Assembly: GCA_951406725.2 (NCBI GenBank)
Contig: OX597836.1
Location: 30,132,001 to 30,196,000, forward strand
DNA from: Octopus vulgaris
Taxonomy: Eukaryota
Direction: 5' to 3'
Length of the DNA: 64,000 nucleotides
Position numbers and translations under genes: made by a program. Shown one piece after another: positions 1,086-63,807 of the stretch; within the stretch, counting starts at the first letter, position 1; each line of letters opens with the position of its first letter. The notes beneath the pieces were generated by a model, which made no database searches, was not told the origin of the DNA, and saw nothing but the letters and a program-made list of their open reading frames with translations.

Positions 1086-3043
1086 TACATACACACATAC
1101 ATGCATCTGTATGTGTGTATGTATTTGTGTACAACTGTGCTTTAGCGCAGTTTCTATCTAAGCATATTCCTCTTACAAGGATTAGACTAATGAATTTGAC
1201 AAAAGACATTTTGCTCAAAGTGTTGCTGTGCATTGGGATTATATCTGGAACCATATGATTGCTAAGAAAACCTCTTGACAATAAAGCCATGTTGTTAAGA
1301 TATTTAAATACTTGTTTGTTACAAAATTATTCCAGCTGATTTACATATTTTTATATAATGAATAGGAATTCTAGTCTATTGAGAAAAGAGAGAATTTTTA
1401 TGAATGGATTTTCATTTTCCACTATTTTACAAACCACTTCTTTCTTCAAACTTGAATGTGTGGGAATTTTTTAATCACTCAGTTATTATCATTTAAATTG
1501 TGTTTTTGGGTGTGGATGGAAATTCACATGGAACACAGCTGGAGCTAATTAGTTTCACAGCTTAAAGTTTTTCCTATATCTCGCCACTCTAAATGAGGCT
1601 TCTAGAGTCACTCGATCAATTGGTCATAAGCATGAAGATGTAACTGAAATGTTTGCTTTGTAATACTATGGTTTCAGGTTCAATCCTTTTGCAAGGCACT
1701 TTGAACATGAATCTTATACTATGGCTTTGGGTTGATCAAGGCCTTGCACATAAAACTGCATAGATAGAAGTTCATTAAACTGAAACTGTTTTTGTACAGG
1801 AGACCTATTCTAGCTTTTGACCCTTCATTGCCTTTATCAGAGTCCTTTTTGTTGCAAGCATCTGGACCAAGCCTCCAGTAGAAGGTAACTCATGAAGCTG
1901 ATGTGCTGCTTCCTTCTGCAGCCACCCAAGAATTCTTCTTTCTACTCTTTCACTTTGCCTTCTCTACCATCTCCAGATTCTGAGACCCTGCTAAGGTCAT
2001 AGGCAAAATAAAAAAGCATAAAATAAAGATGAAAAGTATAAAGAAAAATATACTACCATCTTAAAGTAATAAAAGACATTGAAATATATAGTTGTGCATA
2101 TACAAAAAGACAAATGACTAAGTAGTTCTGGCTAGAGCATCTTCGACCATAAGTCTACTTGATGAAGGACTATCTGGGGTAAAATACCAACAATAATGGA
2201 AAGTAAACAGGTTTTATAATAAATGATACACATTCATCCAGCTTCTATTCCCACTAATTTTGGGAGGGTCATTGGGATAGACTCCTCAGGTACCTTCTCT
2301 TGGCCAAGGTGCCATGCAGTAGGACTGAACTTGGAAACATGTGGTTGGGAAGAGAACTTCTTAAGACACAACCTCATCTACATTTTCTTCAATCATAGCA
2401 AATCTAGAACTACACTATCATCTGATGTGTCTTTGCATTTCTTATCAAGATTGTAAAGCATGAAATTTTGCAGCTATTTCTAGCAGGTTGAGTTATTCCT
2501 ATGGACATTTTAGTGTCAGCCCATGATTGTTTTCTTTCTTTCTTTTTTTGTTTGTTTGTTGTTAATGAAATAGATACTGCTGAAATTTGGGATATTTGAC
2601 TGATATTTCTTGCAGGTTATATAACCAATAATAATTTCAACGTTGGAACTTGATTTTTTTTCCTTATTAGATTAAATAAATGCATATCATTGGAAGGAAA
2701 TATTAAACATCGTTTTACATTTTGATAATTTTAGTTGCGATAATTAAGGAATTAATTGGCAGTTTCAGATTACATACCAGCCTAGGCTGTGGCTTAGTTT
2801 CCTATTCCCAGTGGTAGCTATTTCAATTCATATATATTACTAAAGTCTTTCGATAAAATATTAATGAAATAAATCTCTTTATTTAAGTTCAGGCACAGCT
2901 ATATAAGAAGTTTGCTTCTCAACTACATAATCCTGGGTTCAGTTCCACAGCACAGCACCTTGGACAGGTGTTTTCTACTATAGCCCTGGGTCAACAAAAG
3001 CCTTTGGATTTGACAGATGGAAACTGAAAGAAGGCTGTCGTAT

Positions 3044-3691: not shown

Positions 3692-3922
3692 AGGCGGTGG
3701 GCTGGCGGAAACGTTAGCACGCCGGGCGAAATGCGTAGCCGTATTTCGTCTATCGCTACGTTCTGAGTTCAAATTCCGCCGAGGTCGACTTTGCCTTTCA
3801 TCCTTTTGGAGTCGATTAAATAAGTACCAGTTACGCACTGGGGTCGATATAATCGACTTAATCCGTTTGTCTGTCCTTGTTTGTCCTCTCTGTGTTTAGC
3901 CCCTTGTGGGTAGTAAAGAAAT
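3692..3922 (+). mobile_element. Meta-domain tRNA-derived SINE with target-site duplication
   Basis: GACTTTGCCTTTCATCCTTTTGGAGTCGATTAAATAAGTACCAG resembles the MetaSINE central domain; AGGTATGAGTAGGC is duplicated at 3682-3695 and 3923-3936; inserted into an older family A SINE. Confidence 0.85.
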
Positions 3923-5918
3923 AGGTATGAGTAGGCCAGCGCTTTGTGAATGAAAGCTGGCAGATAGAAACTGCAGAATCCCATTACATGCACTGGCTGC
4001 TGAAGTGTAAGCGATTCTCATGTGACAGGTAAAGAGACAATGTTGTTAGCTTATCCAGTGAAAGATAGTTATAAGTGTTTTCCCAACAGCTAAGACTGTT
4101 CAGTTGGTGTAATAAGAAACGCAACTGCTTGGCAATTGACAAATGTTTAGCTTGAGTACTGAAGTGGGATCTGATCTTTATTTTAGGCTCTGTGTGTATG
4201 TGTGTGCATGCACGTGCATGGGGTTTCCATGTGTGTTTTTTTATCAATATATATCGGTGAAGGATGTAATAAATATCTGCAAAACAAAGGGATGGTTGAA
4301 ACGTTTTTCAAAATGAGGTTCCTTGTAATATTTGTTCTGCACTGAGGTACAGATCTCCCCCCCCCCTCTCTCTCTCTCTCTGTGAAATCTGAACAACTGG
4401 TGACTGGCTGGTTGGAAACTTATAGCCAAATGATACTGTTGTTCAACAATTGTAATATGAAATCAAATAAGACAAAAAACAAACAAAAACAAATAAAATA
4501 AATAATATATATATATATAAGTAAGTAAATAAATAAATAAATAAATAAGTAAAAAAAATAAACTCTTTAGCATTATGCTTGCAGCAGTATAGACACTCCA
4601 ATGTTTCCTTCCACATAGAGAGAGACACTGTTGGAGACAGGTATACTGAAGAAATATAAAAAGATAAATGGAAACAAACCAAGTGTCTCATAAAATTTAG
4701 TTATTGTTGGCACAAAGCAGACATTGGAGTAGATTGTTAAGACATGCAATACAATGTAAAGACACAGTAATGGTTGAAGTTCCATCCAACCAGTGGGTTG
4801 GTTACACATCAAGTGTGAGTGACACAATCAATGCAGCATATATAATAACAGAGGTGAACAGTTCCAACACACACACACATCTATATTATATAAGGAAAGA
4901 GAAGATTGGTACTGACTCGATACTCTTCTATATCAACTGTTACATATGTTTCGGTATCTGGCAACGCATGACATCACATCATTGATGCAACTGGTAGATG
5001 CACCCTGCAAGGCCAGCATGGAGAGCAAACAAATTGCAAGGCTGTCATATAGGAACTGTATTATGTTATAGTATACCCTCCAATATGGATGACCTGCGTG
5101 TCCTAGTGATGGTGGGTATTTAATGCAATTAACATTGGAGCTGAAACTTGTGTGTCAAGCACATCTGATCACGTGCACGTGTGTGCGTGTGTGTGTGTGT
5201 GTGTGATGGACTCTCCTCTTGAAGATGATGTGTGAACATCCAGCTTTTGCTGAATGACCTGTACAAATGATTTGTTAATAATGATCAAATGTTCATACTG
5301 CACTTTAGCTCACTCCTTCCATCAAATCAATGTTGTCTGAACAGGTGCACAGTATACATGCGTCAGGTGTTGAAATGATCACAGAGCAACATGAGATGAA
5401 GTGGTTTGCTCAAGAACACAACACACCACCCAGTCTAGGAATTGAAATCACCATTGCTAACCACTAGGCCATGCACCTGCACATGTAGGTACATACATAC
5501 ATATAGTGTGTGTACAGGTGTGGTGTGTAGGTGAGAAGTTTGATACCCAACCACATAGTCATACATTCAGGCCCCCCTATGTGGCACATTGAGCAAATAT
5601 CTTCTACTGTAGCCTTGGACTGACCAAAGCCTTGTGAATGGGTTTTGTAGATGGAAACTAAAAGAAGCCCATTGGGTGTGAGTGTTTGTCTCTCTTTGTC
5701 TTGATTTTGCATGGAAGTTGTAATTGATTGTCATACACGTAGTAGGATTACACAGAATAAGTCCTGGAATCAATTTGCTTGACTAAGGGCGGTGCTCCAG
5801 CATGGCTGCAGTCAAATGACTGAAACAAGTGAAAGAATAAACGAATATACACACACATGTATGTATGTATGTATGTATGTATGTATGTATGTATGTATGT
5901 ATGTATGTATGTATAATA

Positions 5919-8650: not shown

Positions 8651-8761
8651 ACTGTACAGAAGTTGGATCATGAACATAAGGTCCTGAGTTTGATTACTGG
8701 TGTTGTATTGTTTCTTTGAGCAAGACACTTTATTTCATGTTGCTCCAGTCCACTTAGCTAG

Positions 8762-9429
<668 letters not shown>

Positions 9430-9986
9430 GCATAGGAGATTTGGTTGTTATTTATAACACATTAAGCAACAACATAAAGCTCCCTCAGTCATTTATTACT
9501 GAGAATTTAAAGAGGAATTGAAAATAGCCATGTATATGTAACTGCCTGAGTGCATGTGCACTAGGAGAGTGGAGCATGTGAGTATGATAATAAACAATTA
9601 TTTATTGAAAAGAAGAATTAAGAAGAAAGGAGTGAGCTAAGTTTATAAAGTTCTGAGAGAGAAAGAGACTGGAGAAGTACGCAAAAATTACTGGAGAGTT
9701 ATATGAGCGAAAAGTTGCTTTGAGGATAAAAAGAACAGCCATTTTGATCACCAGACTAACACATACACACACACACACACACACTTAAATAGAAACGAAC
9801 ATGTTTTCACAAATGTCTTTCATTATTAACTTCCAGTGTGATTGATTGTTAAAATGATTTTGTGTGTGTGTGTGTGTGCATTTATTGGCAATAGGAAGGG
9901 CATCTAGTCACAGAAAGTCTGCCTCAACAAATTCCATCTGACTCATACAAACATGGAAAAGTGGATGCTAAATGTTGATGATGATA

Positions 9987-12858: not shown

Positions 12859-13075
12859 TGAGCTGATGGCTTAGTCTATGTGGAGCCTCTTGATCTGCTA
12901 CAAATAACAGTTAAATCTCACCCAAAACATACAGTCTAAAAATATAACTATGCTGTGAGGTCTTGAGGAAGTTAAGGCTATATTAAAAACAAAATGATCG
13001 AATGGTCATGACTGAGTCACATTTAATATGTCAGCTAAATCAGAGTTGAATTTTGTTTAAAGAGCAACAACAACG
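12859..13075 (+). mobile_element. About 210-nt SINE-like repeat without a tRNA head (HDV-like 5' end, (CAA)n tail), decayed copy
   Basis: GAGCTGAT...GATCTGCTACAAATAACAGTTAAATCTC...ATGGTCATGACTGAG...CAACAACAAC; other copies at about 14840-15050(-), 21680-21895(+), 53685-53888(+), 56615-56848(-). Confidence 0.65.
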
Positions 13076-13281: not shown

Positions 13282-13433
13282 AGGCGTAGGAGTGCTTATG
13301 AACCACATGGTTCTGGGTTCATTCCCACTGCGTGGCACCTTGGGCAAGTGTCTTCTACTATAGCCTCGGTTCGACCAAAGCCTTGTGAGTGGATTTGGTA
13401 GATGAAAACTGAAAGAAGCCTGTCGTATATATC

Positions 13434-13482
<49 letters not shown>

Positions 13483-13679
13483 CTATGTTTGTCCCCCCAA
13501 CATCGCTTGACAACCGATGCTGGTGTGTATATGTCCCCGTAACTTAGCGGTTCGGCAAAAGAGACTGATAGAATAAGTACTAGGCTTACAAAGAATAAGT
13601 CCTGGCATCTATTTGCTCGACTAAAGGTGGTGCTCCAGCATGGCCACAGTCAAATGACTGACACAAGTAAAAGAGTAAA
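13282..13679 (+). mobile_element. CORE-type SINE, family A
   Basis: Near-identical to 514-927, with a small deletion in the head. Confidence 0.9.
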
Positions 13680-13930
13680 TATAATATCAATATGAAATGT
13701 TTTATATAGAATGAACTGATATATAATAAACACATAATCAAAAACAAAGCTTTATTACATATTGTATTTCATAATAAAAAGTGGTGGTGGTGGTGGTGGT
13801 GGTAATGAGGAAACCTCATTTTTTATCTTGATTTTAGTGAGATAAGTACATTCACATGCTTGAAGTTTTGTTTATTAAATCCCTACAAATTCTTCATTAT
13901 TTTCACAGTAAATTGAAGTTTAGAACTATA

Positions 13931-14135
13931 GACCATATTTTCCAGCACACAAGTCAACATAGCTATATAGTGTAAACATGTAATATAAACATCCAAACAC
14001 TGTCAATATCTTTCCAAATTCTGCTGCATTTCACATGGAACTTTTTGGTCCTACCCAAGTGTCTTAGTGTTATAAGTCAACCAATGCCTTCTGGTTGTAA
14101 AATTTAGTCTGGAAAATTTAACTTGTAAATTTCTT
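13931..14135. mobile_element. Old Tc2-like MITE
   Basis: CCATATTTTCCAG end; reverse-complement homologue at about 54886-55083 and a partial copy at 14380-14505. Confidence 0.55.
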
Positions 14136-14529
14136 CCAAATTGCACCCTTCTATCTTATATATGTACATACAGTATTTTCTGGCATATCCTCATCTCCAC
14201 CACCATCATCAAGACAGATGTTAAATGATGATGAGGAGGAGGGGGAGGTGGATGTGCAAGAAAATATGCTATGTACACATATAAGACAGAAGGGGGCAAA
14301 TTGAAAGAAATTTAGCTGCTATTTCTAACAGGTCTAGTGACCATGTAGATGTTTCCTTCATTAGCTCATGCATACATATCGTATTTTCTGACATGCCAGT
14401 CAATATAGTATATAGTCTTAACATTTGTGTTAGTGTATAAGTTGACCAACTATTTTTGGCTGAAAATTTTGGTCTGGAAAATTTGACTTGTTGGAAAATA
14501 CAGTATTTTGTTGGAAATTTACTCCCAAA

Positions 14530-14700: not shown

Positions 14701-15409
14701 TGTTAACTTAAGATATGAAAGCTATCAACAAATCCAAGACTACCTCTGTTAAAAATTTCATATTTGAAAATATTCAAATGTCAATGGATGCAGGCATGGC
14801 TGAATACAAAAGACAACATTAACTAATCTATCATTTGACTTGGTTCTTTTTTTAACCCCAGGTCAGCACTGATCAAGAAGTCACTATGGTCCAGTTATAA
14901 CCATTGACTGTTTTAAACGTTTTGAGATGTAGTATATATGTATGATTAGAACAAAGCAATCTATTGTTTCGTACATAAGATATTAGGTCGGTGTGATTTC
15001 AGGTAAACTGAGACAATATGTCTAGCGGGTCAAGTTGAATGGCCACATAGATTGAGATTGGTGAAGTTTACATGGGAATTTTAAAAATAAATTACATTCA
15101 AACTTCACATCACTTGGGACAAGGAGATTATTGGAGTGTCAGTTTAAATGATTTAGAAGATCAAACAAGTAACAACCGGATTGAGACTCAGCTCTTATTC
15201 GGGAATTGCTTTTAAAATCAACATCATCAGCATACACCAACAATAAAGCCATGTTGCATTCATGTGTGCGAGCGCATGCATGCGCGTGTGTGTGTCTGTG
15301 TGTGTAATCTATTTGAGCTGGGGTAAGTGGAATTATTGAATGAGAGAGAGAGAAACAATGAGGAGGGGTATATAGCTTTCAATTATTTTCCCAAAATATT
15401 ACTTGGTCA

Positions 15410-20009: not shown

Positions 20010-20930
20010 AGGAATTTTGGATAAAAAAGTTCAGTAGTTGCCATAAATTGATCACAAAGCAATTTAATGCATTGATCAATGGAGAAGAAATCCCGGGCTG
20101 GTTGACAAAAAGAATGGTGTTGTGCCTGAAGGATGCATCAAAGGGAAATGCTGCTGACAATTACAGACCAATTTCGTGCTTCCCATTAATGTGGAAGTCA
20201 CTGTTAGGAGGAATTGCAGAAGAATTGTATGAACTTCTTGATGAGAACGATATATTACCACCCAAACAAAAAGGCTGCAGAAGGAGATGCAGAGGTACCA
20301 AAGATCACCTATTGATAGACAAAATGGTAACGTAAGACTGTAAATGAAGGAGAACAAATCTGGGAATGGCCTGGATTGACAATCACAAAGCTTATGATAT
20401 GATTCTGCATTCATGGACCATCAAGTGCTTACATCTGTGTCGAATTGTGAGGAATGTAATGTGTTTCCTGAAGAGAAGTATGGTGGGATGGAAAACTGAA
20501 CTGACATCTTACGGAAAAAGCTTGAGCACTCTGGGTGTCAGATGAAGGATTTTCCAGGGTGATAGCCTATCTCCGTTGCTTTTTGTTCTTTGCATGATAC
20601 TCCTGAGCTTGGCACTCAAGAAAACGAACCTGGGGCACCAACTAAAGGAAACATCCCAATCAATCAACCACCTCCTCTTCATGGATGATTTGAAACTGTA
20701 TGGCAAACATGAGACACAAGTGATTTCCTTGGTGAGCATGGTCTACTGTTTTAGTACTGATATTAGAATGGAATTTGGACTAAAGAAGTGCAGAATAATC
20801 TACCTAAAAAGAGGCAACGTACAGTCCCTAGAACTACCAAACAGAGACTTAATTAAGCAAATTGAAACAGAAGGATACAAATATCTTGGTGTACTAGAGT
20901 TCAATGAGATAATGAAAGAGGAAATGGAAA
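20010..20930 (+). pseudogene. R4/Dong-clade non-LTR retrotransposon reverse transcriptase fragment with in-frame stops
   Basis: [69 protein letters not shown] in one frame. Confidence 0.9.
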
Positions 20931-21072
20931 AATTTGGTGGGAGAGTGATAGTCAATTACATCGACCTCCAGTGCTCAACTGGTACTTATTTCATTGACCC
21001 CCAAAAGGATGAAAGGCAAAGTTGACCTCGGTGGAATTTTAACTCGGAACATAAAAACTGACGAATAGTGTG
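20930..21072 (-). mobile_element. Meta-domain SINE body lacking the 5' half of its tRNA head
   Basis: Minus strand GAGTTAAAATTCCACCGAGGTCAACTTTGCCTTTCATCCTTTTGGGGGTCAATGAAATAAGTACCAG. Confidence 0.8.
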
Positions 21073-21078
21073 TGGGAG

Positions 21079-21190
21079 ATGCTTACAGTACCAAGGTTTC
21101 CCAAGTGGTCACCCATCTAAGTACTCACTAGGCCCGACATTGCTTAACTTTGGTGACCAGACGAGAACCGGTGCATTCAATATATGACCT
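21079..21190 (-). pseudogene. 5S rRNA-derived sequence (pseudogene or SINE3 head)
   Basis: Minus strand TTGAATGCACCGGTTCTCGTCTGGTCACCAAAGTTAAGCAATGTCGGGCCTAGTGAGTACTTAGATGGGTGACCACTTGGGAAACCTTGGTACTGTAAGCAT matches metazoan 5S rRNA, including A and C boxes; 5' end degraded, no T-run directly after. Confidence 0.9.
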
Positions 21191-24100
21191 ATTATTATTA
21201 TTATTATTACTGTTGTCATTATTTAGTTTTGTGATTTATTTATAATTAGATTTAGTCGCTTAAATCATTGATAAGATTTGGTTAATTTGTAATCAGGTCT
21301 CCTTTAAATGTAGCTGGGGCATATACAGCAACAGAAGAAAAAAATCATTTTGTTCTTTTCTGTTTTAACTTGAGAATGTTGCAAGTGAGAGGTGCCAACC
21401 AATCCAATCGAATCAAACAGATTAATTATGAGTGAACAAAGAAGCTCCCACAACAGCAGGTGAGAAACTCCTTGCCAGCAGGTAAAGCACAGCCTCCCAT
21501 TTGAGTTTGAAATCACTCACTGGTTAATAAATAATGCATGATATCATTTTAATTAATGATGCTTCATGCAATTTCAATCATATGTATGAATTTACAAAAT
21601 TAACAATTCATTATTTCATCATCACCCCTGCACAGATGTGACCCTTGGAATTTCAATCTTGGTTATTATAAAAGGTTTCTCCATATCTGTTCTAAATGGT
21701 TGTTCAGTTTGCTTGAAATAGTAAAAAAAATCTCCTTCAAACCATACACTGATGTCTTAAAAAAGGAAGGACACATTGGATAATATACTCTTCAATACAC
21801 TATGCCCTGCCAAAGGTAAGATTTAATGGTAATGGTAGAAATTCTTTGGTCATAGATTTGCTTGAGCTTGATCAGAGATGATCTGGAATTAACAATGAAT
21901 TAATCACTAAAATATACAATGAAATCCATAGAGAGAGGAGGCTGGAAGGAAGAAAGGCATTCAGCGAAGAAAGAAAATGTGATTTTTGGGATATTTTTAA
22001 TGCATGTAAACTTAAAGGAGTAGCCTTTTAGATACACAACACAAGTTTCACTGTCAGGACATCTTCATTCTTGATCTCTTCCTAGCTCTCTCTTTCTCTC
22101 TTTACCACTCTCCATAATTAATTTGTTTATCTTTTATGTCCATGATTCCCTACTAGCATGGGTTGGATACATATGGGTACATATTTCTGAGGCATTATTT
22201 TATCACAGAATGTCCTCCTGTTTTTAACTGTTGTTAACCCTCATGTGTTTTTCAAGTAAGGCATTCTTCAATTCACCCATCTATGAAAGCACAGAGTTAC
22301 AAGGTGATTTCTTAATGATGAATGTCAACATAAAATAGCAATTTTACACAAATGGTTTCATGCAAAAACAAAGACTGTTAGCATTCACGCATAAAAAACA
22401 GTATTCTATACAGTTTTCATCAACCAGTTACACTCACAAGGAACTGGTTGATCCAAGACAATAGTAGAAGACATTTTCCCAAGGTGCCAAGCAGTGAGAT
22501 TAAACTCAAAACCACTTCGAAGTGAACTCTATATCCACACAGCCATGCCTGCAGCTACAAGTTGTAATAAAACTCACAGGAAGATTTCAAGGGCCAAGTG
22601 GTGGTGTTAAACAGGGGACAAGATTAATTCTCCCATCCAAAAAAAATTATCACTTTTGATACAGTTTCTATCTATCAAATTACTAAATTTCACTCACAAG
22701 AAACTGCAGTACACCTATTGTGTGTGTGTTGTGAGGCTGTCCATATGGTCTATATAAGATTTTGTGGTTAAATTTCATGTGCAATAAATTCTTTATACTT
22801 CTAGAATACACAAAAGATTTTAACAATATTTTTAATACTAATGATATTTAATTAAAAAATACAAAAGAATTTTTTTCAAACATTGTATGGCTATGAATGT
22901 TCAGCCATGCAAAATCAAAATCAAAAGAATCCATAGGTAAAAAATTGTGGAGATTGCATGAGATATGATTCATCATCAGGCAAGCCACACATTCAGTAAA
23001 TCCCGCAGGCCACACTTTGCCCATGACTGGTGTAGATTCTACCTCAATGGCTTACTGGCAGACTAATTAGTAAAACTACTCTGATACCATAGAATCTTTT
23101 CAAGAACCAAGTTTCAAATCTCCATATCCTTTCATCTCTACTTAAAGAGACACAGAAGAGTCAATGAAAAAAAAAAAAAAAAAAAAAAAAGAAGTCCTTT
23201 TAAATTAAAAAAATTTCAAGCATCATTGAGAATTAAATAAACATCAGAAATGACAATGGCATCCTGGGGCCCTACAAGGGGTCATAGAAAAGTAATAATT
23301 TATTGTATTTGTGTTTTGAGTTTTAAAAAGAGCAGCATTACAGAATGTTTAATTTGATTTTATCTTTACACAATGACTGCCTCATCATATCATGCATACA
23401 TGTACACACACAAACACACATACACATGCACAAGTTGCTGCTAATGTGGTGGGGTCTAATAGTTTCCATGTGCTTAGTTCCATGGTGTGTGTGTCCTTCA
23501 TACAAAAACAAAGAAAAGGAACGAGTAAATATCTGAGAAATTTGCTCCGGGCCTAAGCAAAGAATTATATGAAATTTGCAGTAAAGAAAACTTAATAAAT
23601 ACCTAAAAAAACAAAACAAAAAAAAACAACAAAAAAAAACAAAAGAAAAATGTAATAGGGATAAATTAGAAAGGAGTGGAGAGAGAGCAAGAGAGAGAAC
23701 GGGGAAGAGAGAGAGATTCACACTGTTGTAGTGGAGGGCTGGCTATACATTTTAATATCTTTTTTACATAAAATTACAAACAAAATGCTAATATTTTCCA
23801 ACATTTTTATCCTGTAGACGTAAAACTTTATAAATTTGAATTCTCGAGCGAACGCATTTAATCTTAAGTACAAGGCAAAATAAATAAATAAATAAATAAG
23901 AACACTTCCCAATTTCTTTTTTGGGGTGGGTAAACAATAAATAAATGAAAATACAATTAGAATAAATATTAAAAAAATATATTTTTAAAAATGAAAAATA
24001 TTTTTAGAAAAAAAATGATCTCATCAAAATATTAATTTGAAAATCATGAATATCATTTTGTACTTTAACTTGAAGCTTAAAAAATTCATAAGAATGAGAA

Positions 24101-24823: not shown

Positions 24824-24964
24824 CAGCAGCCGTGAGCAACAAATGACTTTCTGGAGGGCATGCCTAAGGTAAAAATTTTGTGAAAATATTTTAGCAGATA
24901 TTTTTGCCTGATGGTGAGCCATGTCTCATGCAGCCTGCTTCTTGAAAAAGGCTGCCCAAACCTG
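24824..24964. mobile_element. hAT-like MITE, old
   Basis: CAG...GAAAAAGGCTGCCCAAACCTG ends; homologous to about 56845-57002. Confidence 0.45.
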
Positions 24965-27289
24965 CTTTACTGTCTTAAAAAAGACAGAAGGGCACATTAA
25001 ACAATATATTCCTAGATATACAAAGTTTGGATGGAATGCCTTTGTATTAGAAGCACAGAGAACTACATTATCCAATATCTTCTTCCTTTATTTAAGATCA
25101 CAAGGTGAAGTATGTGAATTTTGGAAGATCTGGCCTTCAGTTTTAGCAGATTAAGCTACCACAAAGGATCTCTTGTTGGTGAATACATAATGACTAGTTG
25201 TTATTTATTCCCAAGTTACCTCTAGCCAAGCACACCTATGATCAAAAGTGGTTCCTTCCATGATCATCCATGTCTTTTAATCAGTATGTACAGCAATGTT
25301 GTTCAATGTGTCCTTCCCCAAGACAGTAAAGTGTGATTTGGGAATTATTTCTAATATTTCTTTGATGGCTCATGAATGATAAGCAGAACAGACTAGTGAT
25401 CAAAGATGTTTCAGCCATGACTGCCCAATCTTTTTAGAGTTAAATAAAATATTATCTCGTGAGTTCAATGCCATTGCTTGGCATCTTGAGTAAATCTCTT
25501 TACTACAACTTCATTCATCCTAAAGGTTATTCAACTTAATAAATTTGAATTCTTGTGTTAGTATGACAATTTTTGTGTTAATTTTGACACAAGGTTAGCA
25601 ATTTCAGGAGAGGGGCTAAATCAATTACATCAACCCCAGTATTCAACTGGTATTTAGGATGAAAGGCAAAGTTGACTTAGGGGAATCTGAACTCAGAATG
25701 CTAAGCATTTTGCCCAGCATGCAAATAATCATCCTTGTATTTAATTTTAAGAACAGGGCAAAATAAATAAATAAATCATCATCGTTTAGCGTCCGCTTTC
25801 CACGCTAGCATGGGTTGGATGGTTCAGCTGGGGTCTGGGAAGCCAGAAGGCTGCACCAGGCCCAGTCTGACCTGGCAATGTTTCTACGGCTGGATGCCCT
25901 TCCTAATGCCAAATAAAATATTAAAAAACCCTCTTCCCAATTTCTTTTTTTTTCCCCCTTTTGCAACAAATAAATAAATAAAATGCAATTAGAATAAATA
26001 AAATAAACATTTTTAAAAATGAAGAATATGAATAAGAAATGATCTCATCAGTTTGGCTCAAGCTTTGTGAGTGAAGTTGGGTAAATGGAAATTGAACACA
26101 ACACATCAGATGGATTTTTACTTGTAATTTATAATCCAGTCTTGCCACATATTCTATTATACTGACTACCTGAGAGTTACATTAAGGGTACAAAGGGCTG
26201 TGGTATATTCAGCCGTGTCCACACTATATCAATGAGTAGGTAGTTCAGTTGATTAAGCAACTGAATGATCATCATTGAAGCTAATGGAGGTCCATACTGA
26301 ACTAATGTAAATTTTCCTAAATCACATACCTAAGGCAGAGGTATGTGATTTAATGAAAACTTAGCTGCAATTTCTAGCAGCCTGGATAGCAAAATAGAAG
26401 CTATCGCACATTGGCTCAATGTTATTTTTGGTATGTGGGTGTGTGTGTGTGTGTGTGTGTATGTATGCGTGTGCGCACGTATGTGTGAGTGTGTGTATGT
26501 ATGGAGCTGTGTTTGCAGACTCTGCAAGTCTTGTGAACTTAATGATCAACAGATTCAATCAAGCCAGTGTTCCAAACCTATGAAGCTGCCAAACAATCAG
26601 GTTATTTTATAGTCTAATTTATATCAAAGACATTTTATATATGTATATATATATATGTATATATATATAAATAAACACACACACACACACACATATTCTC
26701 ACTCTTTTCCACTCTGTGTGTATAAGTGGGTGTGTGTGTGCATGCACACATCTATAGATTTTTACTTTTATTCAACATCCCATTAAAGCCTACATGTAAA
26801 CAAAATGTGATGGAAGAAATAAGACAAAATAATTGTTTATTTGTTTATTTCTTCCTTCCTTCCTCCTTTTACTGAAAAGGTTCTCTAAAGAAAACACAAT
26901 TTTATATCGTAATGGCCTTTAAAATAAAATTAAAACCAACACTAACAAAGCAAACAAAACAAAAAAAAAATTTATCTGGCTTAAAATGAATTCTTTACTT
27001 CAGCAGGCAATGGCTATGTGGTTAAGAAGTTTGCCTCACAAACTACATGATTTCTGGTTTGATACACTGTGGTGTAGTAAGTTGAGCAAGTGTCTTCTAC
27101 CCTGAAAGATCTCAGATCAACCAAAACCTTGTCTATACAATTTGGTGGATAATGCAACCGATAATAAACCGGCAGCTTGTTCTGGGAGGTGTTGGGTAGG
27201 AGCACAAAGGATGCAAGTCACAGGGTTCCCGTAGCATGTCCAGGAGTGAACAACCACTAATGATTGTTAGTTGCATAGTATCTTATAGG

Positions 27290-36390: not shown

Positions 36391-37037
36391 TGTGTGTGTG
36401 TGTGTGTGTGTGTGAGTGTGTGTGTGTGTATATATATAAAGATATGTCTGATAGATGGGCTTCTTGCAGTTTCCATCACCAAATTCTTTTGACTGGGATT
36501 GGTCATCCTGAGGTTGTAGAGGAAGACACCCAAGGCAACACGTAATGGGACTGAACTTGGAACATTGTGGTTGCAAGATAACCTTCTTAACCATATAACC
36601 ATATCTAGATATCTCATGTGTATGTGAGTGTGCATGTACACACACACACACACAATATGCTGGCAGTAGTATGATTTATGGGAGTTTGGCTGCTATTTCT
36701 GGCATGTCTGGCAACTGTGAAGAGACTCCTTTCAGGAAAGTTATGTTTACTGTAATAAATCCATCCAGTTTTCATTGTTTCTAAGTTTATATAGAGCAAA
36801 GTAAACAAACGTAGAAGTAAGTTCCTTCTATAAGTATTTTCATTGTGATGGATCACTGTGTTTAGATGCAGCAATATTAGGTGCAGCGATATATTTATGA
36901 AATATCAATTTTGGAAGGTCTCTGACACACACAAACAAATGTATATACACAGACACATACATACTGACACACAAAAATGTGTGTGTGTGTGTGTGTGTGT
37001 GTGTATAAAGAAATATATATAGAAATATAAATATATC

Positions 37038-40314: not shown

Positions 40315-40733
40315 ATGTATTTCTTTACTGCCCACAAGGGGCTAAACATAGAGGGGACAAACAAGAACAGACAAAGGGATTAAGTTGATTACATCGACCC
40401 CAGTGGGAAACTGGTACTTTATTTATCGACCTCGAAAGGATGAAAGGCAAAGTCGACCTCGGCGGAATTTGAACTCAGAACGTAACGGCAGATGAAATAC
40501 GTATTTCTTTATTACCCACAAGGGGCTAAAGACAGAGGGGACAAACAAGGACAGACATAGGTATTAAGTCGATTACATCGACCCCAGTGCGTAACTGGTA
40601 CTTAATTTATCGACCCCGAAAGGATGAAAGACAAAGTCGACCTCGGCGGAATTTGAACTCAGAACGTAACGACAGATGAAATACGGCTACGCATATCGCC
40701 CGGCGTGCTGACGTTTCTGCCAGCTCACTGCCT
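40315..40733 (-). mobile_element. Head-to-tail dimer of the Meta-domain SINE inside one 21-bp TSD
   Basis: Two Meta domains; AAATGTTTGGYTATGTAAATG at 40297-40317 and 40736-40756. Confidence 0.9.
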
Positions 40734-41204
40734 TAAAATGTTTGGCTATGTAAATGGAAGAAATGGATGTATTAGAGTTTATTCATCCCTTTAAAGACGA
40801 TGATTCACCGCATGAGTAATTCCTCATTTCACGTGTATCCTTTTAAGTGACAAATACATGATTGTGTATGCATGTGTGTGCGTGCACGCATTTGTATTTG
40901 TGTGCATGTTTGTGTGTGTGTGTGTGCATTTATGCGTGCGTGTGTTATGTGTACTTTGGTGATGGCTTTCCGATAAATCAGTGCAACATTTTACACTGAG
41001 ATCGACTTAGTAATTTGGTAAATAGAAACAGAATTCATATCAGGCAAAGCAGTTTAGGCCAACAGGTACAAAATACAAGAAAAAAATTTCCGGCTTGGTA
41101 GTGGTGCCCCAGCATGGCCACAGCTTAAAATAACTTAAAATCAGTATAAGAGTCAAAAAATATATTCAACTAGAGATGAAACTAATAACATAATCTTTTA
41201 TATT

Positions 41205-47398: not shown

Positions 47399-47756
47399 TA
47401 TATATATACACATATATACAATGAGCTTCTTTCAGTTTCTGTCTACCAAATCAACTCACAAGGCTTTGGTCGGCCCGAGGCTATAGTAGAAGACACTTGT
47501 CCAAGGTGCTACGCAGTGGGACTGAACCCAGAACCATGTGGTTGGTAAGTTCTATTTTCCTGTTTGCATCAGCATCTGCTAAATTTCTAAAATCAAAAGT
47601 ACAATATTCATGAAACTGTTACAGAAACAGAGGGAAAGAAATATCTAACTGTATCATGAAAACTATTCCATTAGGAAAAAAGGCAAAAAAATGGGGTCAC
47701 TCTACCTGTTGTAGAAATAGCAGTCAAATCACCCTGCTATAATGCCTACCATCTAT

Positions 47757-53142: not shown

Positions 53143-54133
53143 GTGAGGATGTTAATATAAAGGAAATGAAACCTGGATGCTATTTCTAGCAGGCACACTG
53201 ACCAAAGGGAAACTCACTCATTAGCTTGTATCCTCTTTGTTTTTATGTTGTAGGATATAATATAAGGTAAATATGAGCAGCTATTTCTAGCAGGCAAACC
53301 AACCATGTACGAGTTCCCTCGTTAGTTCCAGAAAATTGATATATGGTTAGATGGTAAGATTAAATTGAAAATTAATTTCAAACCATATATTCTCATGCTA
53401 CATTTAGAAATACTAAAGGAAACTTTGCTATTTCGTTAAAAAATTAAAAATGAACTAAAAATTGATTAATACAAATGTATTAAGAAGGAAATATTAAAAT
53501 AAAGAAGACCACTTAATTACAAAAAGAGAAACCCAAAAAAAACAAAGCAAATCTACTGAATATTCAAAAGTAATGAGTGAAAAATATGTTAACTTAATCT
53601 TGTTATTGATTTTGGTCTTAGATTAATTAATTAAAGAATAAGTTTAAATAACGAGTAGAGTAAGTAATTAGAAATACTGAGATAACGAATCAAGGGAACT
53701 ATTATGAAATCACATGACATGCTAGAAGCAACAGCCAAATTTCTCTAAAATTATACTCAATTACCTAAAATGGAATGCAAATGGATTGGATAAGTATAAA
53801 CCTTGATACATAGAAAGAGGGGATGGCCATGGCTGGAATGCTTTTGATTAGGTATCTTCAATCATGGCAGATGAACTAGGGCTAAACCTCTTACACAGTA
53901 TATGAGCCTACAAGGAAACTACTATGAGCTCTAAGATCTTGCTGCTATTTCTGGTTGGCATGCCAGAAAGGTGCCAAGGACTCAATGTTCGGGAGTCTTA
54001 GACTAGTTGCAAAGGAAAGAAAAATTGTTGCTAGAAAATCATCCAGAAACTGCTGAGAAAGCTATCCATTACATTTAGCTCAAAAGTGCATTTGGGATGG
54101 TAGAAACATCTGGTCCAGATGTTTCTACCATCT

Positions 54134-54362
54134 AAGGTGGGGAGTTGGCAGAAACGTTAAGACGATGGGCAAAATGCTTAGCGGTATTTCGTCTGCCATT
54201 ACGTTCTGAGTTCAAATTCTGCCGAGGTCGACTTTGCTTTTCATCCTTTCGGAGTCGATAAATTAAGTACCAGTTACGCACTGGGGTCGATGTAATTGAC
54301 TTAGTCCCTTATTCTGTCCTTGTTTGTCCCTTCTATGTTTAGCCCCTAGTGGGCAGTAAGAA
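54134..54362 (+). mobile_element. Meta-domain SINE, full length
   Basis: Colinear with 3692-3922. Confidence 0.9.
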
Positions 54363-55283
54363 ACATCCAGTCCAGAGTTGCAACATCTGACTCAACAAAG
54401 CTCATACTGTTGTAAGAGATTTGTCACCAATATTGGTGGGTTGCCCTAGGCAGGTTTGGTGTCATGGTGGAATTGACTGAAACACCTACAGAAAACAGAC
54501 ATTAAATGAGGATGAAGATGGTAATGATGATGATGAATGATGGTTTTGTGGTACAGTACATCTGAGATTTGATAAATTTGTATGCAATTAGACATGTAAC
54601 TAACGGCATGCAATATGATATTTAATAGCTAACCAAACATAGTGTGCCATGGAAAAATTTTATGTGTGGCAATGAAAACTTGCTTTGTAACCAAATGGTT
54701 TTAGGTTCTATCTCACAGTGTAGCACCTTGGGCAAGAGTCTTCTATAATTATAGGTTGACCAATGTCTTGTGAGTCAAGCTGTATACATGCCCATTTTGG
54801 TGCATGTGTGGTCATGTATTCCTGCATGTATGAATGTATATTTCTGCTTGCCCTCACTTTGTGTCTTTTTATGCAATGATGGTAATCCTATATTTTTCCA
54901 GTATTCGAGTTGAATTTTTCAGATAAAAATTTCCAGGCCAAAATAGATAGGCTTACTTATACACCAAAACGACTTTAGCAGACCAAAAATTCCATGTGAA
55001 ATACAACAGGATTTGGAAAGATAGTGATGATATTTGAATGTTTACACAATATACTAAGTTGGCTTATATTCTGGAAAATATGGCGTGTTTGCATCACCTG
55101 TAAATAATACATCTTGTAGCTTATCAGTTTTCATGTGTGAAAACCAGGGGAATAAAAAATGCCTTTCTTGGGAAATAGGTAATGGTTAGCAGACATCCAG
55201 ACAAAATATATTGCCTCAGTAAGTCCCAACTAACACATGAATGACAGCATGGAAGCAGCAAACATAAAAACAACGACTGTGGC

Positions 55284-55323
<40 letters not shown>

Positions 55324-57030
55324 GTGGTGGTGATGATGATCATAATGATGATGATGATATGTTACTAATGTGAAAAGTTTGGAATGCTCAAGTCTATCAA
55401 ATCCTTCTTTACCTTTATTTCAAGAGAGTAGGGCGTGATTCAAGGGAGATTTCAGATGCTATTCCTAGCACATTTAAGCAATTGTGTGGAGGCTCCCACA
55501 TGCTAATATTTTTTGAAACAGGAATGAAATGATCTCTGCAGGTGTGGAGCACACCGTCTGCAGAAATTATTGCACTTTTTAGTATTTTAAGTGCACATTT
55601 AGTTTCTTAGGACAGCTCTCATTGACAACTGTGAAATTCTTCAAAAATTTAGCGAGTGGAATAATCTTGTTATATAATGACTAATGGGTCGGGAAATATT
55701 CATATTTTAACATACAAAAGCTGAGTGGTTTTCTAAATTTAAAAGCAAAGCCAGTATCTGCTGGAGACCATAAAAGGGTATTGAACAAAATAACATAAAC
55801 AATAGCTACTATCGCTATGACAATCACTCCTTGGGTTATTCTTGATATTTTAGAAGTACTTTAAGTGTATGATGTACAATGTGTGTGTGTGTATGTGTGT
55901 GTGTGTGTGTGAGAGAGAGAGGGTATAACACCATATATATACATGTATTGGAAGTTATGTTCTCACACATATTTACTGAATATGATATTAAAGTGTATAA
56001 AATAATATACATTAATGTTAAAATATATATGGTATGATGCACACATACACACTTAAAAGTGATGTTAACATGTATAATGCAATAATGCACATAATAAAAT
56101 GTCTTATATGCTAACCAAGCATTTTAGAGAGTAAGATCTATAATGCATTATACAGATGTGTGTATATACACACACACACACACAATATAAAGTGATGTTA
56201 ACATGTATAATGCATAAAATATTTAAGATATTTCACTGAATAAGAATAGAAGTTATTCTAGAAATTACCAATAATTCTACTTTCTGTTTTATTATATTTA
56301 AAACAAAAATTAATGAAATTAAATGGAGGAAAAAATATATAAATAAATGTAAGTGGTTCATTAACAAATTAAATTTTCAAAGAATTAAATTTTAATAATA
56401 AAAATAGTGAGAAATTGCTGCAAGAGATGGAAATTACTTGTTGTGTTGTTAACAAGATTCCTTAGATTTTATAGAAAGAAGCAAACTACAAAAGTTTATG
56501 ATATATTTTTCTGCAAGTGCGTGTGTGTGTGTGTAAGCATGCGCTCTCCAGCGCTTCAATGGATGTTCTTTTTTGATCAAAATAGATGTTCTTCTTCAAG
56601 AAACAGCATGGTGTAAGGGGCTGATGTTTATCTCAGGCTTTCCAGCATATTAAGTGAATGAAACTTGATTAAAAGACATTCAAACTCTGACTATCCTCTT
56701 TGTTTTTTTGCCACCTAAGGATAGAAATAACATGACCCAATCAATGTGTCCTTCCTTTATTTAAGACAACTGAAAGTAAGGTTTTATTATTTTTGTTTTT
56801 TAGAGAGATTTAGTGTTATTTCTAGCAGATCAAGCAGCTGCATAGATCAATCATATTCAAACTGTGGCCTGCAGGGCTTTCTGAAAGGCACACCTAATGA
56901 AACATTGCTTTGAATTTTTTTTTCCTTTTAATAGTGTGACTTGCCTGATGAAGAGCCATGTCACATGCAGTCTGCTTCTTGAAAAAGGTTGCACATGTCG
57001 GGTATAGAATATTGGCTTCCAACCGGGGTT

Positions 57031-62410: not shown

Positions 62411-62702
62411 CTGTCAAAAGTGCAAATATGCAAATTAGGGTATCCACAATGGTGCGACAAGTGTAGCAGCTGAATGCAATATGCTATTGATTGGTGAAGA
62501 AAACTGGGTATGTCTTCCCTGATGAGTGGTTGATAAACTGTTAAATAGTTCATCAGGAGATCCTCCTCTCTTATCTTTCTGCACATCAAAAGTAGTGAAT
62601 TCACCTGCTCTGCAATATCTAAGAGAGACGGGGAGAAAGGGAGAGAGCATAGACAAGAGATGTTAAATGATGAGGATGATGATATATGTATATATATATA
62701 TA

Positions 62703-63090
62703 TTCTTTTATTCTTCTACTTGTTTCAGTCATTTGATTGTGGCCATGCTGGAACACTATCTTGAAGGGTCTTAGTTGAATGAATTAACCCCAGGACTTTT
62801 TTTTAAAGCCTAATACTTATTCCATTGGTTTCTTTTGCCAAACTGCTAAGTTACAGGAACATAAACACACCAACACCGGTTGTCAAATGCTGATTGAAGG
62901 ACAAACACAGACACAACAATACACATGATAGGCTTCTTTCAGTTTCTGTCTACCAAATCCACACACAATAGTTTGGTTGGCACAAGGCTATAGTAGAGGA
63001 CACTTTCCCAAGGTGCTACGCAGTGGGACTGAACCCAGAACCATGTGGTTGGAAAGCAAGCTTCTTACTACACAGCCATGCCCATACCTA
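62703..63090 (-). mobile_element. CORE-type SINE, family A
   Basis: Colinear reverse complement of 514-927. Confidence 0.85.
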
Positions 63091-63807
63091 TATATATATA
63101 TATATATACTCTTGACAGCAAGAATTTAGAAGCTTGAAAAGTGTGAATTCTTTTTAGGAATGATGGATCTCAAAGCATGTAAGTATTGGATTCAAAACCT
63201 TCCCTATAGAAAATGTTGAAGGCTGCCCTAAAAAGAACACATACACACTTAAATCCTAGCAGTTTGTATTAAATAATTTGGCAGCTGAACTGAAGGGAAG
63301 GCATGAGTAATATGAATAATGCTGAATTAGCTTTTGCACAACAAAACTGTTTACAATATGGGGCAGTGGACAGGATGCATAGAAGTAAACAGATTTAGAA
63401 TTTCCTCAAATGTAGACAATTCCCACCTACACATTTGTTGAAACTAAACCCTGGCATTCTTCAATGGCGAGACAGTAAGCTAAGATGGAGACTAGATGGA
63501 GATTTGGCTGCTCACTTTTGGCAAGAGAAGCAACTAAGTGGAAATACCTTTGAAAGAAATGTAGTTATATTAAAGAAGTGATGATTGCAAAAAAAAAACA
63601 AAAAAAAACTTCAGTTTAGCCAAGGGCTGATTTTGGGGTAAAAAAAAATTCCTGATTAGATGGTAGATATGCCTTATGTTTCACACATGCACATCACACA
63701 CATATACACTGATACACATTGATAAGAATATATTTAGGGTAATAATTGTGAAATTAAATAGCTAAATAACAAGGATATTAAGACTGAAGAGAAAGGATAT
63801 TTGCTGT

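Follow-up and report, generated by a model that had tools for sequence, protein, structure and literature searches.

A fossil octopus retroposon with a predicted HDV-type ribozyme head, likely derived from an Ingi-type LINE

A 64,000-nucleotide stretch of the Octopus vulgaris genome (contig OX597836.1, referred to here as the window) contains, at 14303..14367, a short sequence that an initial annotation described as one of about 15-18 decayed copies of a SINE-like repeat, with a 5' end folding like a self-cleaving ribozyme of the HDV type. The question raised by this locus is whether such a family exists, where exactly it begins, whether its head is a ribozyme relative, and which retrotransposon would have copied it. 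The reading that we favour, with a probability of roughly 0.62, is that of a fossil retroposon of ~225 nt whose HDV-type head likely came from an Ingi-type LINE, which would have cut itself from its transcript just before its first base (C1) and been copied back into the genome by LINE enzymes.

We observe that the repeat family itself is real. Aligned to the family head, each of the 15 positions named by the initial annotation scores higher than any of 2,000 shuffled controls (49.5 at the lowest, against a null maximum of 41.5), and 14 of them are also profile matches at E<=0.01, the exception being 9433. The window holds 25 family profile matches versus 0 in each of five shuffled windows, and one 22-mer of the head occurs exactly 912 times in the 2.8-Gb genome and 0 times when read backwards. 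Thirty 10-kb stretches taken at round coordinates contain 27 family matches, with 18 of the 30 stretches having none; scaling of this sample gives 2.5 x 10^5, and we very roughly put the number of family fragments genome-wide at ~10^5. The window and its 100-kb flanks (G000:C23:30.08-30.25 Mb), with 25 and 46 matches, are ~4-5x denser than the 30 sampled stretches. Besides the copy at 14303, the following copies are found in the window (by profile search, unless stated otherwise):

21691..21892 (+), near full-length copy, body and tail region (profile E 2.8e-31)
53690..53887 (+), near full-length copy with tail (profile E 8.2e-32)
12870..13068 (+), near full-length copy with tail (profile E 1.6e-18)
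14849..15051 (-), near full-length copy with tail, absent from the initial list (profile E 2.4e-15)
56670..56846 (-), copy, family positions 19-170
25052..25179 (-), copy, positions 5-126, part of a four-fragment cluster (24963-25465)
26280..26417 (-), copy, positions 2-127
53165..53328 (-), two tandem head-bearing copies, positions 2-101 and 1-64
55396..55500 (-), copy, positions 9-108
36665..36732 (-), head-only fragment
47691..47754 (+), head-only fragment
63490..63552 (-), head-only fragment
2383..2495 (-), copy, positions 28-139
2049..2191 (+), partial copy, its 3' two-thirds
9418..9472 (-), strongly decayed head fragment with approximate bounds, pairwise score only and no profile match

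The family consensus (~223-228 nt) opens with a 65-nt head; a body containing two A-runs follows, then a 3' hairpin and, after the hairpin, the (CAA)n tail that had been noted previously. The consensus drawn by eye was essentially right, apart from its start position. Stop codons in all three frames leave it without coding capacity. As had been claimed, no tRNA, 5S or 7SL head was found for the family, with tRNA absent in 16 of 16 loci; a Pol III A box (allowing two mismatches), an exact B box and a terminal inverted repeat (best 6/10) are all absent from the family. A fixed 3' end, a simple-repeat tail, the lack of coding capacity and a target site duplication (TSD) signal, weak per copy, are the hallmarks of a non-autonomous non-LTR retroposon, and we are nearly certain that the element is a retroposon. 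The 5'-truncated copies cluster near family positions 100 and 142, just after the A-runs. At one further locus (L242; G000:C30, about 2,353,900-2,356,500), the 3' half of the element (positions ~100 to tail) forms a tandem array of ~17 units, a satellite born from the octopus retroposon.

With respect to age, 123 near-full copies show a divergence from the consensus of 28.7% at non-CpG sites (range 14-42%). Extrapolating from the published octopus repeat calibration, in which a distance of 0.2 corresponds to 56 My (PMC13282606), the family is roughly 100 My old and would, on the same rough scale, predate the octopus bursts described in that paper. All 15 core pairs survive in only 2 of 237 head-bearing copies, and just one of these keeps the candidate catalytic C, while the best of the 14 window copies retains 13 of 15; the earlier remark that every copy is decayed is borne out, as the family is dead and the copies that are left are relics. 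A search with a long exact pattern of the head gave 0 matches, so that there are no young intact copies of that form, and 0 occurrences of the exact ancestral core were found in metagenome contigs. The most intact head-bearing copy seen (L121:1290-1523) is oriented antisense within what seems to be the 3' UTR of an atlastin-like gene and is upstream of a poly(A) end that one contig shows; a search for its expression listed no RNA record. The contigs that span it come from runs only presumed to be RNA and, given the antisense placement, are uninformative on cleavage.

The 5' boundary of the family is sharp. Of 48 copies selected by a pattern that begins at position 4, 41 start with C or T, and the first two positions are CG, TG or CA in 31; among 80 copies chosen on positions 3-8 only, drawn from 193 near-full copies, the corresponding counts are 69 and 54, and sequence conservation stops at position 1. 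In the latter set the base preceding position 1 is A in 45 copies and the next one out is C in 28, a mild bias that lies below the conservation of the element bases and that we read as target preference. The TSD signal over 54 copies peaks (z 4.9) with the upstream arm ending at the boundary base, compared to 0.3-3.8 at nine other offsets, although per copy it is weak (8/54 above the 95th percentile; 3/19 in an earlier run). The boundary counts and the TSD peak thus indicate that the element starts at a CpG-decayed C, one base upstream of the G of GAGC at which the initial annotation had seen the 5' ends. Its expectation of a pile-up of 5' ends was correct as to the sharpness of the ends and wrong as to the base, which is C1. 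The shift lengthens P1 to 5 bp and moves the predicted cut from before a G to before a C, and this predicted site, 5' of C1, coincides with the family 5' boundary at the base of P1.

In this register, the consensus shows the order of helices P1/P2/P3/P4 that had been proposed. P1 (CGAGC) joins positions 1-5 with 30-34 by five Watson-Crick pairs, instead of the ~4 bp assumed before, and is topped by a C6-C29 mismatch; P2 joins positions 10-15 with 60-65; P3, previously given as 2-3 bp, can be counted as 3 bp if its one G-U pair is included with two C-G pairs (positions 16-18 with 26-28, around the 7-nt loop UCUACGU), and an alternative parse combines a 2-bp P3 with a 7-position P1. P4 spans positions 37-52, with CCAA directly after it, and the C1 register adds a P1.1 pair (U21-A35) that had been left unassigned. 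The candidate catalytic C of J4/2 is C in 60% and T in 28% of 156 copies, with CCAA offering two candidate Cs. J4/2 is indeed long in the consensus, as had been cautioned, with CCAA plus extra bases before P2, and the distance from P3 to the foot of the P1 strand is 9 nt versus 10 in every comparison head. With five pairs plus C-C at position 6, P1 is within the range of R2 ribozymes, a quarter of which have mismatches at the top of a 6-7-bp P1 stem and in which a C-C mismatch at the top is linked to poor cleavage (PMC3774820), and it falls short of most family members (PMC4908430).

The full fold descriptor including P1.1, which was written with the fold already in view, is matched by the consensus but by none of 40,000 dinucleotide shuffles; stripped of its sequence constraints, it is matched by 0 of 20,000 shuffles, and the reverse complement of the consensus fails it. 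Pairing falls from 79% to 23-54% when the helix partners are slid. The checks suggested with the initial annotation were less favourable. We observe no covariation among 27 copies (378 of 500 shuffles reach the same level); since copies that decay neutrally from one master are not expected to covary, the covariation test gives no support. Rfam finds no ribozyme family at threshold in the window, the CPEB3 model (RF00622) aligning in register to the best copy with 10.8 bits against a threshold of 35; the head of an octopus LINE family described below, Ingi family C, has no ribozyme match in Rfam either, which indicates that the library covers retrotransposon heads poorly. In a descriptor scan of 1.65 Mb, the catalytic position showed no preference for C (6 C, 2 A, 6 G, 7 T). 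On the whole, the head is very probably homologous to HDV-like ribozymes, and we lean, by analogy, towards its having been catalytically active while the family spread.

The copy at 14303 follows this pattern: it is a decayed family head as described, starting one base further 5', at 14368, where position 1 is a CpG-decayed C that now reads T. It is 3'-truncated, covering only about the first 90 family positions, and has no tail. Its parts, all on the minus strand, are as follows:

14303..14368 (-), decayed HDV-like head, family positions 1-65 plus one extra base, 78% identity to the family head
14364..14368 (-), 5' strand of P1, with predicted cleavage just 5' of 14368, the family insertion boundary
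14343..14349 (-), L3 loop, 7 nt, CpG-decayed, its third base predicted to pair with A at 14333 (P1.1)
14334..14339 (-), 3' strand of P1, 6 nt versus 7 in Ingi and trypanosome heads, two pairs broken
14316..14331 (-), P4 hairpin, 6 bp with a GAAA loop
14309..14315 (-), J4/2, with the candidate catalytic C at 14315, assigned by position
14303..14308 (-), 3' strand of P2, its partner being the purine run near 14353-14359
14278..14302 (-), start of the element body, where the copy breaks off with the tail absent

The surroundings of this copy (14060-14491) are locally rearranged, with an imperfect inverted duplication (14126-14314) that includes its broken end and a direct repeat of 67 bp, the two units of which are at 14060-14126 and 14426-14491. 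A portion of these surroundings has a further match at 54908-55083.

The octopus head resembles the Pr77 heads of trypanosome retroposons. In the supplement of PMC4035085, 11 of the 13 bases of the P3/L3 core are common to T. brucei SIDER2 and the octopus head, and the Pr77 heads, parsed by eye, carry C-N-A-A plus three extra bases before P2, as the octopus head does. In contrast, P1.1 of the Pr77 heads pairs a loop A with a partner U, whereas the octopus family has a loop U and a partner A; a manual alignment across families gives A-U (trypanosome), U-A (octopus retroposon) and C-G (two octopus Ingi families). Pr77 heads are reported to cleave before C1, with L. major SIDER2A and T. congolense L1Tco/NARTco active in vitro and some trypanosome SIDER heads inactive (PMC4035085), so that the long J4/2, held against the fold initially, and the missing G-G P1.1 are common to active trypanosome ribozymes. 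As described for NARTc, RIME and SIDER (PMC4035085, PMC3185411), the octopus family is a short non-coding retroposon with an HDV-like head starting with C, a near-identical P3/L3, a single-pair P1.1 and a CGTG motif in L3/P3. It differs from them in its animal host, its ~10^5 fragments, its (CAA)n instead of poly(A) tail and its predicted P1, which has 6 positions and a C-C top where theirs has 7 bp. Core and geometry appear common to the octopus head and the Ingi-clade 5' hallmark by manual comparison, the head being too short for an alignment statistic.

Under the favoured reading, a master RNA would have been made by Pol II, through read-through or internal transcription, and its 5' end would have been fixed by self-cleavage 5' of C1, for which the J4/2 cytosine C53 is the candidate catalyst. 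An Ingi-type protein with APE, RT and RNase H would then have recognised the 3' hairpin and (CAA)n tail, and insertion would have proceeded by target-primed reverse transcription, leaving a short TSD. Self-excision from host transcripts is inferred by analogy. The view of the repeat as a ribozyme-headed, Pol III-independent retroposon thus keeps its footing in the absence of a Pol III head and in the sharp 5' end at an HDV-type fold, with its G register replaced by C1.

A Pol II promoter such as that in the homologous trypanosome head could alone set the same 5' end: Pr77, the L1TcRz head of L1Tc, is also an internal Pol II promoter in which CGTG at +25 to +28 is essential (PMC4748587), and the octopus head has a CGTG core at +23 to +26, in L3/P3. 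It is possible, though rather unlikely, that the head descends from an Ingi-type ribozyme that had lost, or nearly lost, catalysis, with the start of transcription defining the family boundary. The short P1 with its C-C mismatch, the long J4/2 and the inactivity in vitro of some trypanosome SIDER heads agree with such a loss. However, all five helices are intact in the ancestral consensus, including a P1.1 with both partners changed, and a promoter alone needs none of them; both functions can also coexist, as in L1Tc.

Whether an Ingi-type LINE supplied the machinery depends on what the octopus genome contains. An RNase H search of the genome returned eight loci, seven of which are non-LTR elements of three families, with (CAA)n tails in 6 of the 7; L263, from the same search, is an LTR-type pol fragment. 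Twenty further low-identity matches all belong to family A, whose 5' end was looked for and not found. L334, a full-length element, has a TSD and encodes a 2A motif, three PHD fingers and the APE, RT and RNase H domains. This is in line with the architecture described for the Ingi clade, in which one ORF comprises 2A at the N terminus together with APE, RT and RNase H (PMC3708506), and with that of L1Tc (PMC3185411), and we place L334 within the clade by its domain architecture; its database relatives have the same domains and no clade names. Families B and C begin with HDV-like folds, and family C, to which L334 belongs, ends in 13 bases identical to the last 13 of the octopus retroposon. In both families (L334, L336, L142, L338), P3 (RCC/GGU), the 7-nt L3 and the (CAA)n tail resemble those of the retroposon, and family B has the first six bases of the P2 purine strand in common with it. 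They differ in a G start, a C-G P1.1, a 7-nt 3' strand of P1 and a much younger age (about 85-95% identity between copies), and their bodies are not alignable with that of the retroposon, which makes them cousins and not the parent.

The heads of families B and C are young. That of family B (L142:1900-2010 (+), L338, L340, L046, L289) has an HDV-like fold without P4 and an insertion of ~36 nt with two predicted hairpins in the 5' strand of P1, where family C has a single bulged U. In copies of these two families (L333, L336, L338, L340), the first 70-110 bases often lie inverted next to a 5'-truncated body, and the inverted starts stop where a CAA-rich stretch directly follows the ribozyme, which resembles a footprint of twin priming.

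The proposed comparison of the tail with LINE 3' ends, in genome searches that scored a fraction of their candidates, yielded no parent LINE, the 13-base terminal match to family C being the only one; an extinct parent may have been missed. None of 62 5'-truncated copies followed upstream runs into common LINE sequence, and the body does not match the three Ingi families significantly (lowest p 0.024 in one set of nine tests and 0.04 in another set of six). Two further candidate likenesses, between the head and the 3' end of Ingi family B and between a short in-frame peptide and the family B ORF, were rejected, since neither was significant once the number of tests was allowed for. The RTE and CR1 families that an RT search brought up were also rejected as partners, as their tails do not match.

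Metagenomic Ingi-type relatives comprise 79 loci, and 16 of the 31 ends examined, judged by eye, are (CAA)n or (CCA)n. In the 5' regions of 35 of these relatives, a relaxed P1/P3/P1.1 core turns up 15 times, versus 3-7 times in controls, several of the heads starting with C and having A-U or G-C P1.1 pairs. The descriptors were written after the fold had been seen, and this one was loosened after two stricter ones had given results at control level (1/35, and 5 versus 5 in controls). Five metagenome contigs (L418, L433, L436, L440, L441) carry Ingi-type elements with HDV-like cores that start with C, have atypical L3 loops and mostly lie right after CAA- or C-rich flanks; standard descriptors would miss them. 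Considering the tails, the terminal match and the heads, an Ingi-type partner probably mobilised the octopus family.

It is doubtful that the element was a chimeric SINE with a body from elsewhere, headed by an active, structurally shifted HDV-like ribozyme (C1, U-A P1.1, 6-position P1) that replaced a Pol III promoter and left ~10^5 self-cleaving inserts; if it was, host transcripts would have been cut wherever an insert lay in sense, and genes would show a strand bias as the trace. We also consider unlikely a ribozyme-headed retroposon that came from, or was mobilised by, another LINE clade (RTE, Vingi or R4/Dong), or that joined an Ingi head to an unrelated body. RTE, Ingi and Vingi, as well as R2, have all been described as yielding bipartite non-autonomous LINEs, and 5' ribozymes are known in several LINE clades, RTE and R4 among them (PMC5786205); (CAA)n tails also occur in RTE elements, as in the supplement of that paper, the body matches none of the Ingi families seen, and our genome searches for a parent scored 131 of 775 and 150 of 20,801 candidates. 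Against this, none of the three RTE families seen in the octopus genome ends in (CAA)n or resembles the octopus tail, and the element has no similarity to their ends. No Vingi-like family was found among the RT loci that clustered, part of the loci being unassigned, and the Vingi-2_Gav head is described as G-starting and CPEB3-like (PMC5786205), unlike the Ingi-like octopus head. An accidental fold on an ordinary SINE, MITE or Helitron-derived repeat with an unrecognised head is very improbable: the subthreshold Rfam score and the lack of covariation would suit it, but no shuffle fits, the 5' boundary coincides with the P1 base, and there is no tRNA, A or B box, or terminal inverted repeat.

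The design of a self-cutting retroposon with an Ingi-type head is not new, since it fits the ribozyme-headed, bipartite non-autonomous LINE derivatives (NARTc, RIME, SIDER, R2 SIDEs). As with R2 SIDEs and R2 5' ribozymes (PMC3414825, PMC3774820), the octopus element would be an internally deleted LINE derivative whose HDV-like head would release it from a co-transcript, and its 6-position P1 with a top mismatch falls within the R2 range; in contrast to R2 SIDEs, it is dispersed genome-wide and not confined to rDNA, and its inferred partner is an APE-type LINE. With bipartite RTE and Vingi elements (Bov-A, RTESINE, Vingi-1_EE derivatives), as described in PMC5786205, it shares the lack of a small-RNA head, LINE-type ends and a microsatellite tail. 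If the favoured reading is true, the range of L1Tc/ingi-type mini-retroposons that are ribozyme-headed and promoter-independent, known from trypanosomes, widens to include an animal, in a family whose copy number rivals that of tRNA SINEs, and a likely class is named for part of the unclassified octopus SINE load. The swapped P1.1 and short P1 are a natural test of the tolerance of the HDV fold, and the young, intact HDV-like heads of octopus Ingi-type LINEs can be assayed directly. The importance of the finding is limited by the design having been described already and the family being long dead, with cleavage predicted and the parent LINE not found. We found no description of the octopus family or of an octopus Ingi ribozyme in the open literature; Repbase, Dfam and subscription papers may hold one. 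The main text of PMC13282606 mentions neither Ingi nor ribozymes, and its supplements or octopus library may contain the family, as may Repbase or Dfam under an automatic name.

Several other repeats share the window with this family. A 5S rRNA-like sequence above the Rfam threshold (21080-21196 (-), 69.5 bits) lies right after RT fragments at about 20012-21020 (+), which look R4/Dong-like by a motif. A second SINE family, tRNA-derived by eye, is much younger and more abundant (513-913, 8704-9160, 13293-13693, 62646-63109 and others), and at least one further repeat family is present (3692-3928, 40317-40735, 54096-54363). Elsewhere in the genome, at loci L372-L374 (G000:C1, about 204.889-204.899 Mb), a 57-bp unit is repeated in tandem over ~10 kb, and the minus strand holds an open frame of 2,372 codons.
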